Source of the DNA: Candidatus Liptonbacteria bacterium
GTDB lineage: Bacteria; Patescibacteriota; Minisyncoccia; UBA6257; JACOXY01
Assembly: GCA_016182095.1 (NCBI GenBank)
Contig: JACOXY010000014.1
Location: 7,234 to 71,233, forward strand
DNA length: 64,000 nucleotides
Direction: 5' to 3'
Shown here piece by piece: positions 57,152 to 61,745 of this stretch; position 1 is the first letter of the stretch; the number at the start of each line of letters is the position of its first letter. The position numbers and the translations under genes are program-made. A model generated the notes under the pieces. The model was not told the DNA's origin, ran no database searches, and was given only the letters and a program-made list of their open reading frames with translations.

Positions 57152-57916
57152 TTACTGTCTTACTGCCTCATAAAACAGCCGCGTCTTAGTTAAATCAACA
57201 TTCGGCGCGGCCGAGATCGGATATTCTATCTGAAAAAATCTTTCTTCAAACGCTTTGACGTCGCGGACTTGGGTCTTGGATACTCCCAGAAGCGTGCCGT
57301 TTATGCTATAAAACAAGGCTCCGATATCAACCTGCGTAAAAAGCAGTGTTTCCTCGTTTTTTATATTTCCACGGATAAAAATTTCACCGCTTTTTACATC
57401 ACTATTTACTTGTCTGAAAGTAAAGTTTGGTTTCCTGAATTTATTAACTGACTCCCAGACTGGATCCCCTAATGTGATTTTAGGCGAACCAATCACCACG
57501 CTCCCAGCGCCATCCAACTGCTTAACAATATATTTTTCCTTGTCACCGGGATAAATAAAAGTTTCGTCTTTAAAAGTTTTGATGATATTTCCGCTTGCGC
57601 CATAAACGTCAAGCTGGTAAGGCAGTTTTAGCGCGCCAAAGCGAGTATTTGGGTTTTCAAGTTTCACCAAAATAACGGGGTCCTGCGCCAAAAAAGAAGT
57701 CCGAAGAACAACCTCAATCGGCTTTAGGCTTTTTATTTCACAAGACATGCAAGAAGCGCCACCGCAGTCCACTCCCGCCTCATCTTGATTTTGCTTTCCG
57801 TCAAAGCAGGTCGGCTCCGGTTTCAAAATAAAATAGGGAGCATAAATTATCGCAAAAAAGAAAGTGGTGTAAAAAATGCCATAAAGAAATTGTTTGCCGA
57901 TGCGCCTTGGTTCCAT
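57152..57916 (-). CDS. hypothetical membrane-anchored protein
   Basis: TM, PTCFDGKQNQDE.GVDCGG.C module, two Ig-like segments. Confidence 0.75.
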   Translation of the reverse strand: MEPRRIGKQFLYGIFYTTFFFAIIYAPYFILKPEPTCFDGKQNQDEAGVDCGGASCMSCEIKSLKPIEVVLRTSFLAQDPVILVKLENPNTRFGALKLPYQLDVYGASGNIIKTFKDETFIYPGDKEKYIVKQLDGAGSVVIGSPKITLGDPVWESVNKFRKPNFTFRQVNSDVKSGEIFIRGNIKNEETLLFTQVDIGALFYSINGTLLGVSKTQVRDVKAFEERFFQIEYPISAAPNVDLTKTRLFYEAVRQ

Positions 57917-57955
57917 AAATTCATCATATAAAATCTTTTTTCTCTCGCGCTCTCC

Positions 57956-58116
57956 GCAATATATAAATTATCCTTGCTTCTCCTAAAAAATGAATAAGAA
58001 AATGCCGAACTCAACCTGGTTTTGCTAAAGCAAAACTGCGGGATTCAAACAGCGGCATTTTCTTATTTTTTACTCGAAGCTTCGGTAATTTATATATCTT
58101 GCTACGCGATGCTTAT
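57956..58116. repeat. left arm of a 161-bp inverted repeat
   Basis: Near-perfect reverse complement of 59478-59638; contains an internal AATAAGAAAATGCCG/CGGCATTTTCTTATT hairpin. Confidence 0.92.
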
Positions 58117-58173
58117 TCAAAAAGATTTTATGCTCTTACATATATTAAGATAATAGCAGAAAAAATAAAATAG

Positions 58174-58201
58174 AAAAAGCCCCGCCAACTTGTGACGAGG
58201 C
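58174..58201 (-). terminator. intrinsic terminator of the putative long ncRNA
   Basis: Minus strand GCCTCGTCA-CAAGT-TGGCGGGGC followed by TTTTT. Confidence 0.7.
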
Positions 58202-59093
58202 GGCCCCGCGCAGTTTATCAATGCCCGGGGTGGTGGCTGGGGGTGCCGTAGCACCTAGGGCCTGCCACCTCGGTCAGAGACTGGATCCTTGAAGCGCGTC
58301 CCCTTGTGGGGCCGCCTTCAAGTTGTGAGCCACTGGCTCACAAACAAGCGCGATCCAATCTCCTGGAAAATTTTAAGAACTCGCGGAGGGAGATGTCGGC
58401 CTATCCCGTGGCTCGGTTGCCGGCTGGTCGGGCCAGGCAGAACGGCAGCTTGCGCTGCGGCCTTGTTTCCGTCGTTGCCCAGCGCCCATTCCCCGACAGT
58501 TTACCGGACATCTCCTCCCGCGAAATCTGGGCTCGCAGCTTCGCACAATTGACAACTGACACTTAACAATTGACTTGTGCAGACAAGCGCAAATTTCGTG
58601 GGATAAGTTTATTTTATTTCCTGAGCCTGTCGAAGGAATACAATACTGTAGTGCTTCGACTACGCTCAGCAACTAAATTTTCACCCCCCCAAGTAAATGT
58701 TTTTCACTATCTGCCTTTCCTGAAATATCTTACTTGAATGAAACGATTGACTGAAAAACACTTACTTGGTACATTACAGCTACGCCCAGAACTTCGTCGG
58801 GCCCGCGCGCACGACATACGGTGCGTTAGCCGGCCACCTCTGGACGTAGGACTTGCGGCGACCTCGAGATCACCGCGCACCAATGAAAAGAACTTGCGAA
58901 GCTCGGAAGAACAACTTCCGTCGTCTTACGGTTCGGAAACCCCGAACGCTGCAGCGGTAACAGCTCCCACGGCCAGCGCCAAGCACCAGCATCCGAGCTC
59001 CCGGCGAATATTGGAGGTGTGCTGCCCGGACCAGCACACCCCCGCTGCTTTAGCCAATCTCCAGGAAGTGTCTCGGGCCTCCCAAGATTGGAT
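58174..59093 (-). ncRNA. putative long structured ncRNA (two GC-rich domains, ~58190-58545 and ~58775-59093)
   Basis: Dense nested helices, c(UACG)g and c(GCAA)g tetraloops and G-U pairs on the minus strand; no credible ORF; promoter and terminator present. Confidence 0.65.
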
Positions 59094-59099
59094 TTCAAC

Positions 59100-59128
59100 A
59101 TTATAGCATACTATCCAGAATAATGCAA
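59100..59128 (-). promoter_or_regulatory. sigma70 promoter
   Basis: TTGCAT-N17-TATAAT with extended TG. Confidence 0.75.
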
Positions 59129-59173
59129 GTAGTCAAAAAAACAGCGTGAAATAAGGGTTTTATAAGCAAGTGA

Positions 59174-59385
59174 GAAGCCCAACTTTGTGACATCCGATGT
59201 CCAGAAACAAAAGACATTAATATTCGGGACATCGGAAGTCAATGCAAAGTCCAACTTTGCGACATCCGATATCTAAAGATGTGGCTGCGGAAAGAAGCCC
59301 AACTTTGTGACTTCCGATGTCCAGAAACAAAAAACTTCAACCCTTCGACTTCGCTCAGGGCAGGCATTTAGGACTTCGGATGTAA
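59174..59385. repeat. cluster of GACWTCCGATGTCC REP-like palindromes
   Basis: 39-nt direct repeat at 59174-59212 and 59294-59332, degenerate copy ~59250, inverted copies ~59227 and ~59371. Confidence 0.75.
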
Positions 59386-59477
59386 GGGGTTATCCTACTA
59401 TATACTGCCCCACTTGGCGCCAAAAAGCCACACGAGGGGTAAGACCTAATATTTGGAAAATGGCGCAACATTTTTTT

Positions 59478-59638
59478 ATGAGCATCACACAGCAATATCT
59501 ATAAATTATCGAAGCTTCGAGTAAAAAATAAGAAAATGCCGCTGTCTGAATCCCGCAGTTTTGCTTTAGCAAAACCAGGTTGAGTTCGGCATTTTCTTAT
59601 TCATTTTTTAGGAGAAGCAAGGATAATTTATATATTGC
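59478..59638. repeat. right arm of a 161-bp inverted repeat
   Basis: Reverse complement of 57956-58116. Confidence 0.92.
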
Positions 59639-59669
59639 AGGGGGCGCGAAGAAAAAAACGTTGTGCCAT

Positions 59670-61550
59670 TTATTCAACAGCCAACCCTAACGCCTTTTTT
59701 CTCCTCTCTTCATTCTCGTCCAAAACCCTTTTCCTTATACGCACATTTTTAGGAGTCACCTCCACCAACTCATCATCCCCGATGTATTCCAGCGCAGCTT
59801 CCAGATCCATGGTCCTTGGAGTATTAAAGTGTTCATCCAACCCTTGATTTTTTGAACGCATGTTGGAGAGTTCTTTTTCCTTGCAAACATTTAATCTGAT
59901 GTCTTCCTCGCGCGCATTCTCTCCCACTACCTGGCCCTTGTACACCTCCACTCCGGGACCAAAAAATAAAACTCCCCTGTCTTGAACATTTAGTAGTCCG
60001 TACATTTTAGTAACGCCCGTTTCATGCGCTACGAGTGAACCGCGCTCTTTATCTTTCCAATCTTTATAATCCTCCGCAAACTTATCAAAAAGAGAGTTCA
60101 TAATTCCCATGCCTTTGGTATCGGTTAAAAATTCACTTCTGTATCCGAAAAGCCCCCTCGTAGGAATAAAAAATTCTAAGAAAGTAGTGCCTAAAACAGA
60201 TTTGCTTTGCAAATCTGTTCGGCCGGACAATCCTTCAGATTGTCTTAGGCCATCCACTTTCATATTCTGCATAATTCCATGCCTTCCGCCTAATTTTTGA
60301 ATTACAACCCCGGAATAAATCTCCGGAACTTCTATAAAAACTTTTTCATATGGAGCCATAAGCTTTCCGTCAATTTCTTTTAAAATCACCTGCGGTCGCG
60401 AAACTTGAAACTCATATCCTTCCCTGCGCAACCGCTCAATTAAGATCGCGAGATGCAACTCGCCCCTCCCGGACACTATCCAACCACCTACACCATTTGC
60501 CTCATCTAACACCTGTAAAGCCATATCGGTTTCAAGCTCCCGAAATAATCGCTCGCGAATTTGGCGTGAAGTTGTAAACTGCCCCTCTCTCCCCGCAAAA
60601 GGAGAATCGTTGGCACTGAAGGTCATTTTTACCGTCGGCTCCTCTATATCCAAGAGCGGCAAAGCCACGGGATTATTTGCGTCCGCTATGGTTTCGCCAA
60701 TATTTATATCCGGGATTCCAGAAATTGCCACAATATCTCCAGCTAAAATTTCCTTCGCATCCACGCGGCCCAAACCTTCAAAAGTCATGACTGATGTAGG
60801 ACGGTATTTTTTTACTTCGCCACTTCTATTTATATGAGCCACCTCAACTCCGGCTTTGAGAATGCCATTATAAATTTTCCCGGTCGCGATTCTACCTTTA
60901 AAACTATCTCCCGATACGGTTGTAACCAAAATTTGAAGCGGTTTATTAACATCTCCTGTTGGCGCCGGCACGTGGGTTAAGATTGTTTCAAATAGTGGCG
61001 TCACATCTTGCATTTTAGAAACATCCGCTTCCAAGCCAGCCAAGCCCTGCTTTCCTACCGTATAAATAACTGGGAAATCCAAGAGCTCGCTGGGCGCGCC
61101 GAGCTCAACAAACAAATCAAATGTTTTATCAAGCGCAAATGGCGGCCGGGCATCCGGTTTATCAATTTTATTTATCACCACGATGATTTTAAGATTCATC
61201 GCGAGGGCTTTTTTCAAAACAAATCTGGTCTGCGGCATGGGACCCTCTTTGGCATCAACCAAAAGGAGAGCGGCATCCGCCATGTTTAAAACACGCTCCA
61301 CCTCTCCTCCGAAATCAGCGTGGCCCGGCGTATCAATTATGTTAATTTTTACACCACTCCATACCACGCTCGCGTTTTTACTAAAAATCGTAATACCACG
61401 CTCGCGTTCAAGTTCGTTGGAGTCCATGATAAGCCCCGCCGCTTCGGTTTCTTTTCCAATTTTAGTTTTTGATTGCCTTAAGAGCGCATCAACCAGTGTA
61501 GTTTTCCCATGGTCAACGTGCGCTATGATAGCGATGTTTCTGATGTTCAT
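59670..61550 (-). CDS. typA: translational GTPase TypA/BipA
   Basis: NIAIIAHVDHGKTTLVD, DTPGHADFGGEVER, GRGELHL, RGL.GYR, ELVEVTP; start taken at ATG 61550. Confidence 0.97.
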   Translation of the reverse strand: MNIRNIAIIAHVDHGKTTLVDALLRQSKTKIGKETEAAGLIMDSNELERERGITIFSKNASVVWSGVKINIIDTPGHADFGGEVERVLNMADAALLLVDAKEGPMPQTRFVLKKALAMNLKIIVVINKIDKPDARPPFALDKTFDLFVELGAPSELLDFPVIYTVGKQGLAGLEADVSKMQDVTPLFETILTHVPAPTGDVNKPLQILVTTVSGDSFKGRIATGKIYNGILKAGVEVAHINRSGEVKKYRPTSVMTFEGLGRVDAKEILAGDIVAISGIPDINIGETIADANNPVALPLLDIEEPTVKMTFSANDSPFAGREGQFTTSRQIRERLFRELETDMALQVLDEANGVGGWIVSGRGELHLAILIERLRREGYEFQVSRPQVILKEIDGKLMAPYEKVFIEVPEIYSGVVIQKLGGRHGIMQNMKVDGLRQSEGLSGRTDLQSKSVLGTTFLEFFIPTRGLFGYRSEFLTDTKGMGIMNSLFDKFAEDYKDWKDKERGSLVAHETGVTKMYGLLNVQDRGVLFFGPGVEVYKGQVVGENAREEDIRLNVCKEKELSNMRSKNQGLDEHFNTPRTMDLEAALEYIGDDELVEVTPKNVRIRKRVLDENEERRKKALGLAVE

Positions 61551-61561
61551 AATTAAAACTA

Positions 61562-61615
61562 TTTCCTGAACTTGTCGAAGGAATACAATATTGTAACCCT
61601 TCGATAAACTCGGGG
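61562..61615. repeat. CTGA..TGTCGAAG / CTTCGA..CTCAG REP-like palindrome
   Basis: Shares arms and the AATACAATA(C/T)TGTA loop with 58617-58672. Confidence 0.7.
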
Positions 61616-61745
61616 TATAAAGTTTCTTCGCTCTGCTTAGCATTACCAACGCGAGCGAATGCGGATAATTCTATCACACTTAAAAGAGCTTGACAAGTAA
61701 TATATGACGTGTTAAACTTGGCACAGCAAGAAAGGAGGGTTCAGA

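Follow-up and report, generated by a model that had tools for sequence, protein, structure and literature searches.

A modular, family-restricted and probably transcribed non-coding RNA gene outside Rfam in Candidatus Liptonbacteria

The window analysed here is a stretch of 64,000 nucleotides (nt) from contig JACOXY010000014.1 of a Candidatus Liptonbacteria genome. On its minus strand, between typA/bipA and the gene for a hypothetical protein, lies an array of hairpins and folded domains, preceded by a promoter and closed by a terminator-like hairpin, which is likely a non-coding RNA gene of the chromosome. The evidence assembled below indicates that this gene is modular, probably transcribed, restricted to one family and outside Rfam.

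The source genome (G000; 893 kb in 23 contigs, 43% GC) was compared with three other species of its family (G001, G002 and G003) and with a genome from outside the family (G004). Wider searches covered 151 genomes of the order, scanned with sequence models, 150 genomes of the class, scanned with the model R2, and the GTDB collection, scanned for the exact pattern of module M6. R1 is the model of M6, while R2 is the model of M7 and was trained on 5 copies. In addition, four public runs, all of DNA and all from one groundwater study, were compared with the locus by means of assembled contigs.

The array and its modules

The elements of the array are given below, from 5' to 3' on the minus strand, together with the evidence on which each is based.

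59100..59128, minus strand: sigma-70-type promoter TTGCAT-17-TATAAT with extended TG (sequence; counterparts in G003 and G001)
58174..59093, minus strand: predicted non-coding transcript of ~920 nt, possibly +49 (promoter and terminator bounds, folding, counterparts)
59054..59091, minus strand: 5' hairpin CCAAUCU.../...GGAGAUUGG, the 3' arm of which recurs at 58355-58368
59013..59043, minus strand: M2, hairpin GGGGUG...CACACCUCC, second element in all three arrays (alignment A4)
58898..59001, minus strand: multibranch domain with closing stem GGAGCUCGGA/UCCGAGCUUC (fold)
58884..58895, minus strand: boxA-like tail 1, AAGUUCUUUUCA, directly 3' of a closing stem, a putative NusB binding site
58780..58876, minus strand: two GC-rich hairpins, GCGGUGAUC/GGUCGCCGC and CUACGUCCAGA/UCUGGGCGUAG (folds)
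58769..58770, no strand: site of 49 extra letters in run contigs (4 of 4 runs)
58689..58769, minus strand: M6, AT-rich 18-bp hairpin CCRAG...CUYGG with conserved loop UUCAnnCAAGUnAGAUA, the best-conserved module (alignment A2)
58621..58670, minus strand: REP-like (repetitive extragenic palindromic) palindrome CUGAG..GUCGAAG, with many matches elsewhere in the genome
58516..58603, minus strand: alternative stem CCCACGAAAUUUG/CAGAUUUCGCGGG, competing for the 5' arm of M7 (folds, alignment)
58381..58523, minus strand: M7, folded interior enclosed by the closing stem UUCGCGGGAG/CUCC(C)GCGA (alignment A3, folds)
58371..58382, minus strand: boxA-like tail 2, GAGUUCUUAAAA (sequence)
58277..58362, minus strand: three-way domain with closing stem GAGAUUGGAUC/GAUCCAGUCUC (fold)
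58206..58272, minus strand: 3' hairpins, one of which (58242-58255) has a C(UACG)G tetraloop (folds)
58174..58201, minus strand: intrinsic terminator-like hairpin with U-tract (terminator scan)

The original prediction, made from the window's letters, had proposed a structured non-coding unit on this strand, belonging to no recognised class. The proposal holds, as the unit has no match in Rfam and has syntenic counterparts with the same promoter and modules in related genomes. The near-consensus promoter is present at 59128-59100 as claimed, although a consensus promoter scanner skips it, its -35 element matching TTGACA at 3 of 6 positions; a hairpin with a U-tract is likewise found at 58201-58174. 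To judge from these signals and from the counterparts described below, the locus is quite probably transcribed.

Every helix listed in the original prediction was found in the sequence, and the two GC-rich domains, with a GC content of 60-61% where the genome has 43%, fold better than dinucleotide shuffles, with z=-2.95 for 58770-59095 and z=-4.62 for 58170-58560. Z-scores for the fold of the whole array, obtained from 12 shuffles and inflated by mixed composition, were set aside. The 14-mer TTCC(A/T)GGAGATTGG, reported as common to both domains, occurs twice in the window against 0.04 occurrences expected. The idea that the two domains represent units of 320-360 nt received no support: they share only short words, and the units that are conserved are modules of 30-150 nt. 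One of these, M6, falls in the supposed low-GC linker: this middle part, passed over by the original prediction, contains the best-conserved module plus repeats dispersed over the genome.

Continuous stems of 12-24 bp are present in the arrays, that of M6 measuring 18-24 bp across species, and in G001 and G003, too, M6 follows a GC-rich hairpin. The M7 closing stem, UUCGCGGGAG/CUCCCGCG, has one copy in G000 and two in each of the G001 and G003 arrays, around folded interiors which are unrelated to one another in the five copies; the alternative stem, whose loop carries dispersed CAATTGA-type 7-mers (58546-58574), precedes 4 of them. G001 and G003 have two further modules in common, and a recent internal duplication of 111 nt is seen in the G003 array. 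The palindrome at 58621..58670 is an insertion and does not belong to the conserved RNA.

In all 4 runs, the assembled contigs have 49 letters between 58769 and 58770 that the window lacks. The gap sits at the foot of the M6 hairpin, as an assembly deletion or a strain difference; the window may thus lack part of the RNA at this point, and the predicted transcript would then be 49 nt longer. A related contig, in runs X2 and X4, spans 58899-58994 with 9 differences.

The claim that the region has no credible open reading frame (ORF) was upheld in part: ORFs of up to 122 amino acids (aa) overlap it, but none is conserved across the arrays of G000, G001 and G003. A comparison with Rfam gave no match at the gathering threshold within the locus, the best score being E=0.45, a miRNA-type noise hit on repeats, and the homologues in G001 and G003 were blank apart from one value of E=0.72. 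OLE, ROOL, GOLLD, HEARO, ribozymes, introns and riboswitches are all included in the Rfam 15 library; as no covariance model of this library gives a match at gathering score or with a significant E-value, all of its families were discarded as identities for the RNA.

The reported lack of RNase P, transfer-messenger RNA (tmRNA) and signal recognition particle (SRP) hallmarks was confirmed by looking for each of these RNAs. The genome has its RNase P RNA on C13 (E=5e-15, below the cut-off) and its tmRNA on C6. For SRP RNA, no RF01854 match exists in G000, and neither RF00169 nor an SRP_SPB domain was found in any of the 4 family genomes. For 6S RNA, no RF00013 match was found in G000, and the rod-shaped repeat flanking the array is patchy and multi-copy.

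Conservation and range

Counterpart arrays were found at the same site and in the same orientation in 2 of the 3 other family genomes, G001 and G003, so that the order typA, optional gene, promoter, array and hypothetical gene is common to three species. The G003 array measures ~1.3 kb; that of G001, which is split over two contigs, reaches ~1.57 kb. The optional gene is found in G001 between typA and the array promoter (L060:2529-3547), and presumably encodes a diiron-oxygenase-like protein. The promoter of G003 is identical to that of G000 at 25 of 29 nt, and at the equivalent place G001 has TTGACA-18-TATAAT. The G003 array ends in a GC hairpin with a 9-nt loop followed by a U9 run; the end is less clear in G001.

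This degree of similarity was evaluated against that of the flanking genes. In typA, G000 agrees with either G001 or G003 at only 30-31% of the four-fold sites, and G001 with G003 at 48%; the hypothetical protein is 44-47% identical between G000 and the other two, and M6 is 63-77% identical across the three genomes. Because M6 and the promoter are kept while synonymous sites have reached or almost reached saturation, purifying selection would appear to act on promoter and modules. Position, promoter, module order and closing stems are constant across the three species; interiors and number of modules vary.

The G003 bin contains two extra 16S genes (C31, C69; L230, L231) with archaeal-like 5' ends, and contamination is possible; the contig bearing the array is syntenic and unaffected by it. 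In G002, the slot before the hypothetical gene (L047:1-480) holds duplicated 5S rRNA-like 3' ends and, instead of an array, a small ORF with a strong Shine-Dalgarno-like (SD-like) site. In G004, outside the family, no array was found at either flanking gene.

The collection of homologues with a covariation test, suggested by the original prediction, produced the counterparts in two species, but covariation is suggestive without being significant. In M6, 2 of 22 pairs are compensatory, a number reached in 48 of 500 shuffles, and in M2 both partners differ in 3 of 14 pairs, a value that 22 of 500 shuffles reach. For the alternative stem, 96% of the alignment cells are paired and 1 of 13 pairs is compensatory, with 280 of 500 shuffles as high; for M8, a module found only in G001 and G003, 3 of 35 pairs are compensatory. 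As to the strand, the sense strand folds better than the antisense one in 35 of 45 windows, and six tetraloops of the UNCG/GNRA type are found on the sense strand and none on the opposite one.

The distribution of the modules is narrow. Among the 151 order genomes, strong R1 matches occur only in G000, G001 and G003, a weak one in G045 (E=0.014) being read as chance, and R2 matches its 5 training copies only; in the 150 class genomes, R2 gave one weak match, within a coding region. The exact M6 pattern was found, over the GTDB collection, only in contigs of G001 and G003, and in each genome both M6 and M7 are restricted to this single locus. BLAST comparison of the whole unit with 60 relatives mostly detected dispersed repeats, plus M6 in G003. 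The 5' domain, compared with 400 order genomes, gave 4 weak matches, of which the 2 inspected were chance similarities in coding sequence. A pattern scan of metagenomes, which returned at least 80 loci and was swamped by chance matches, revealed no module in the flanks among the matches listed. Scans of viral sequences returned either no match, single chance matches or 51 loci, none of which scored better than E=0.85 with R1, and the best BLAST match to phages (E 0.3) is not significant.

Runs X2 and X4 also contain contigs of related organisms: some span an M7 whose interior is shorter, some span the multibranch domain near the 5' end, and others link modules across gaps. At least three further variants are visible among them, so that the same groundwater holds more members. 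A G004 locus with one tail-like word (L053), considered as a possible member, was rejected: it is a region of small ORFs with no module in common. The same region (L053:500-2500) combines hairpins and GTTCTTT words with numerous small ORFs that have GGAGGTGA sites, and may correspond to another boxA-rich long transcript.

Flanking genes and dispersed repeats

The features surrounding the array are the following.

59670..61649, minus strand: typA/bipA, upstream flanking gene, used as synteny marker
57152..57916, minus strand: gene for a 254-aa hypothetical protein of the candidate phyla radiation (CPR), downstream flank, with hydrophobic N-terminus and no Pfam match
57932..58120, plus strand: left inverted repeat (IR), separate from the RNA gene, one copy of a long palindromic element of ~190 nt that is dispersed
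59474..59662, minus strand: right IR, a second copy of the ~190-nt element in opposite orientation (sequence comparison)
59173..59390, no strand: dispersed repeats of the GACATCCGATGTC and CTTCGAC..CTCAG types, clustered upstream of the promoter

The look-alikes of the 254-aa protein are from Minisyncoccota and related CPR groups. A repeat cluster similar to the one upstream of the promoter is found downstream of the array in G003.

Inverted repeats of 161 bp had been described around the unit, and they are present, with 152 of 161 positions identical in the best register. Their core is identical at 133 of 135 positions, and the similarity extends to 212 nt at 87%. They had also been taken to enclose the RNA as the cargo of a cassette, which the comparison contradicts: the arms are members of a dispersed family and are absent beside the array in G001 and G003. 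A composite transposon or IR-bounded cassette was discarded, considering that the repeats do not accompany the RNA in these two genomes and that neither the site nor the orientation of the array differs between the three species; a scan of six neighbouring genes found no recombinase. Very probably, the flanking repeats are two independent copies of the dispersed element and no required part of the RNA gene, and the near identity of the two arms suggests recent copying or gene conversion. Run contigs break at the inverted repeats.

Folded as DNA, the arm forms a long hairpin of its own (z=-6.1). It was matched by BLAST in 16 of 250 other order genomes, and a model built on ten copies detected it in 32 of the 151 order genomes, with 1-14 copies each, at most 17 candidates having been scored per genome. 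In G000, C1 holds part of a third copy, and in G001 one copy is found on another contig, not by the array. Within the family, 16 of 33 pairs are changed on both sides; an asymmetric inner motif, GAACTCAAC...GGGATTCA, is nearly invariant, while the apical hairpin is freely exchanged (L254-L282) and the ends blur into variable stem extensions. The 38 ORFs neighbouring the copies correspond to unrelated housekeeping or unknown genes; no transposase was found among these 38 ORFs, no genome-wide transposase search having been made. Six loci of the element gave no Rfam match, and a description of the repeat was not found in the literature, supplementary tables being outside the scope of the search. 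It is apparently a widespread, covarying and undescribed CPR element.

In its size of ~150-190 nt, its long imperfect palindrome, and its intergenic, patchy and multi-copy (1-14) occurrence next to unrelated genes, the element resembles MITEs (miniature transposable elements with inverted repeats) and repeats of the ERIC and RU types. It differs from them in its strong covariation (16 of 33 pairs), its inner motif and the lack of a transposase in the 38 flanking ORFs.

Interpretation and comparison with known systems

The interpretation favoured here, to which a probability of about 0.45 is assigned, is modelled on ribosomal RNA operons. A strong promoter would direct the synthesis of one untranslated precursor of ~0.9-1.6 kb, boxA-like tails would load NusB-S10 during synthesis, and the long stems would be cut by RNase III, an enzyme which processes rRNA stems, with release of separate module RNAs. 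Binding of NusB to the GUUCUU tails is given an even chance; processing by RNase III into trans-acting small RNAs is a slightly more tentative proposal.

This precursor model is favoured because the tails resemble boxA and because nusB and rnc are adjacent in the family. The motif RGUUCUU, a pattern picked after being seen in the arrays, has 8 occurrences on the sense strand, against 0.76 expected, and none on the antisense strand, and none of 1000 shuffles reaches 8. All eight occurrences lie within 6 nt of a helix end. Each array contains 2-3 copies of a stem followed by a GUUCUU tail. The boxA consensus is GYTCTTTAANA in E. coli, as given in the available portion of PMC5725501, and AUGAUCUUUGAAA in B. 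subtilis, where, according to the accessible text of PMC13753749, it follows a small hairpin and binds NusB. By inspection, the 8 tails match about 8-9 of the 11 positions of GYTCTTTAANA, which is the consensus of E. coli, the motif of the family's own 16S leaders being different. The gene nusB is present in 4 of 4 family genomes, where it adjoins rnc, and rnc is present in 5 of 5 genomes tested.

A number of results weigh against this model. No covariation test is significant, with 2-4 related sequences in each, because only three species are available, two of them in one genus. The sense strand is richer in G and U, which in itself favours sense folding. The claim that helix mismatches resolve as G-U pairs on this strand was borne out to a moderate extent only, by 26 G-U against 13 A-C (p=0.053), in a strand-symmetric count over three arrays, spurious stems included, for which 0.53-0.55 is expected from composition. 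A Rho_N domain was found in none of 5 genomes, which removes the classic need for antitermination. The 16S-leader boxA candidate of G000 and G003, GTACTTCGAAAA, differs from the GUUCUU tails; a nearer match, CCGCGGCTCTTTTTAA, in the 23S leader of G000 is not obviously kept in G001 and G002. Finally, G002, a genome in 90 contigs and 95% complete that represents a third genus, has nusB and rnc, but an array was seen next to neither of the flanking genes, and R1 and R2 gave no match. As for the targets of released RNAs, antisense matches in the own genome are not clearly above those of shuffled sequences, the 13-mer matches being 7 against 6.9, 18 against 9.2 (maximum 25) and 5 against 4.7.

The tails may be viewed differently, by taking the whole RNA as a scaffold or decoy which binds several copies of one protein, such as NusB-S10, in the way of CsrB-type sponges or of large ornate RNAs. 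The 2-3 stem and tail copies per array would fit this role, the conserved alternative stem would expose or hide a tail by branch migration, and long-range pairings between 5' and 3' parts are seen in the folds of G000 and G003. These pairings, however, are not common to the species, and two or three sites are few for a sponge. Moreover, the number of modules and their interiors vary, unlike the covarying architecture which the available text of PMC12286853 reports for OLE, ROOL and GOLLD; on balance, the scaffold is unlikely. A nest of palindromic DNA, a mosaic of MITEs and REP elements whose closing stems would be element ends and whose transcript would be incidental, is a weaker candidate still. 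The locus does gather both IR arms, the REP-like palindrome, 7-mers and GACATCCGATGTC clusters, together with the recent 111-nt duplication of G003 and short arms recurring in both orientations. Such a nest does not explain why M6 and M7 occupy one locus per genome, why the promoter is kept against saturated synonymous sites, or why tetraloops and tails are strand-specific.

The position of the array, on the same strand as the downstream hypothetical-rodA-mltG genes and with a linkage to the first of them fixed in three species, would suit a very long leader or attenuator, and segments able to pair with the 5' arm of the terminator exist in G000 and G003. This explanation is nevertheless very improbable: 150-600 nt separate the terminator from the gene, a space which in G000 and G003 contains dispersed repeats, the would-be antiterminators are not homologous between species, and in G002 and G004 the gene stands behind a 5S rRNA-like sequence, without an array. 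Hardly credible is an array of small peptides, with SD-like GGAGG sites held in stems as in type I toxin mRNAs. GGAG or GGGGG words do precede a few short ORFs, but no ORF is common to the three species and the 3' end of 16S rRNA carries no anti-SD in G000 (L229:4020-4050) or G003 (L236:1480-1510). Little SD signal is seen in G000, where 40 of 629 upstream regions contain GGAG and the controls give 34. Loss of the anti-SD is described, in the accessible part of PMC9297842, for many Parcubacteria.

Returning to the rRNA-operon-like precursor, its constant frame of competing stem, closing stem and GUUCUU tail might be the unit through which exchangeable cargo, in the form of folded RNA, is processed and loaded with protein, with modules added, duplicated and swapped by the lineages behind one promoter. 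The array would then belong to a class of CPR cassette RNA genes not described before; this is a speculative extension, considered rather doubtful. If the RNA is expressed and processed, it would represent a rare regulatory RNA system of Patescibacteria, with a frame (closing stem and tail) that is directly testable, and NusB would have a role beyond rRNA in cells where no Rho was detected. Genomes of this group are near 1 Mb, and yet a single site with 0.9-1.6 kb of folded, non-coding DNA has been maintained in three species, apparently by purifying selection, in a family where no SRP, Rho domain or anti-SD was found, and with no 6S RNA found in G000. The importance of the finding is limited by the narrow range of three species and by the fact that expression is so far a prediction.

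Some further observations concern the stable RNA genes of these genomes. The motif GTACTTCGAAAA follows a hairpin in the 16S leaders (L222:256-267, L232:3323-3334) and is a candidate family-specific boxA. In G000 the 16S, 23S and 5S genes are unlinked, and an insertion near the 5' end of the 16S gene (G000:C3:39400-39850) contains an open frame, the product of which is presumably a four-helix bundle. ARAGORN reports in G000 no tRNA-Met, -Asp or -Tyr by name, two tRNA-Ile(TAT) and several duplicated anticodons; interrupted or miscalled tRNAs are possible.

Two known types of element were also considered and rejected as identities for the array. RNAs of retrons, of defence-associated reverse transcriptases and of diversity-generating retroelements (DGRs) were discarded, the two reverse transcriptases of the genome being on other contigs, in DGR-like layouts, and no gene matching the domains of the array. 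The two DGR-like loci of G000 (L145, L149) each comprise a reverse transcriptase, an Avd-like ORF and a template-like repeat, and reverse transcriptases occur in 4 of 4 family genomes. A CRISPR or TIGR array was discarded as well: no regular repeats lie inside the transcript, and its neighbours are typA, rodA, mltG and a CNNM gene; neither cas nor tas genes were found in the scan of six neighbours.

A description of this RNA was not found in the literature, supplementary tables of candidate motifs, which could hold it, being outside the scope of the search. Among known systems, CRISPR and TIGR arrays resemble it in placing a constant frame and variable inserts on one precursor, and boxA upstream of CRISPR operons is reported in the available part of PMC13753749. 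Here, however, the inserts are self-folding domains of 80-150 nt rather than short spacers, only 1-2 M7 units are present per array, and the inserts have no excess of matches in their own genome and no significant phage match. With OLE, ROOL and GOLLD, as far as the accessible text of PMC12286853 describes them, the array shares the character of a large, helix-rich, protein-free gene of open function; it differs in lacking a fixed architecture and covariation of the whole molecule, in the variation of its interiors and module number, and in its occurrence in three species. The array resembles the leaders and spacers of rRNA operons in its predicted long untranslated transcript, its strong sigma-70 promoter and its long closing stems around folded domains, and also in boxA-like words directly 3' of helices, the details of boxA being those given in PMC5725501 and PMC13753749. 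Unlike in those operons, the enclosed domains are neither rRNA nor tRNA, several tails are found per transcript, the tails differ from the 16S-leader motif of the family, and the system is known from one family only. Under the reading of interchangeable cargo, the array would be an RNA-level counterpart of a gene-cassette array.

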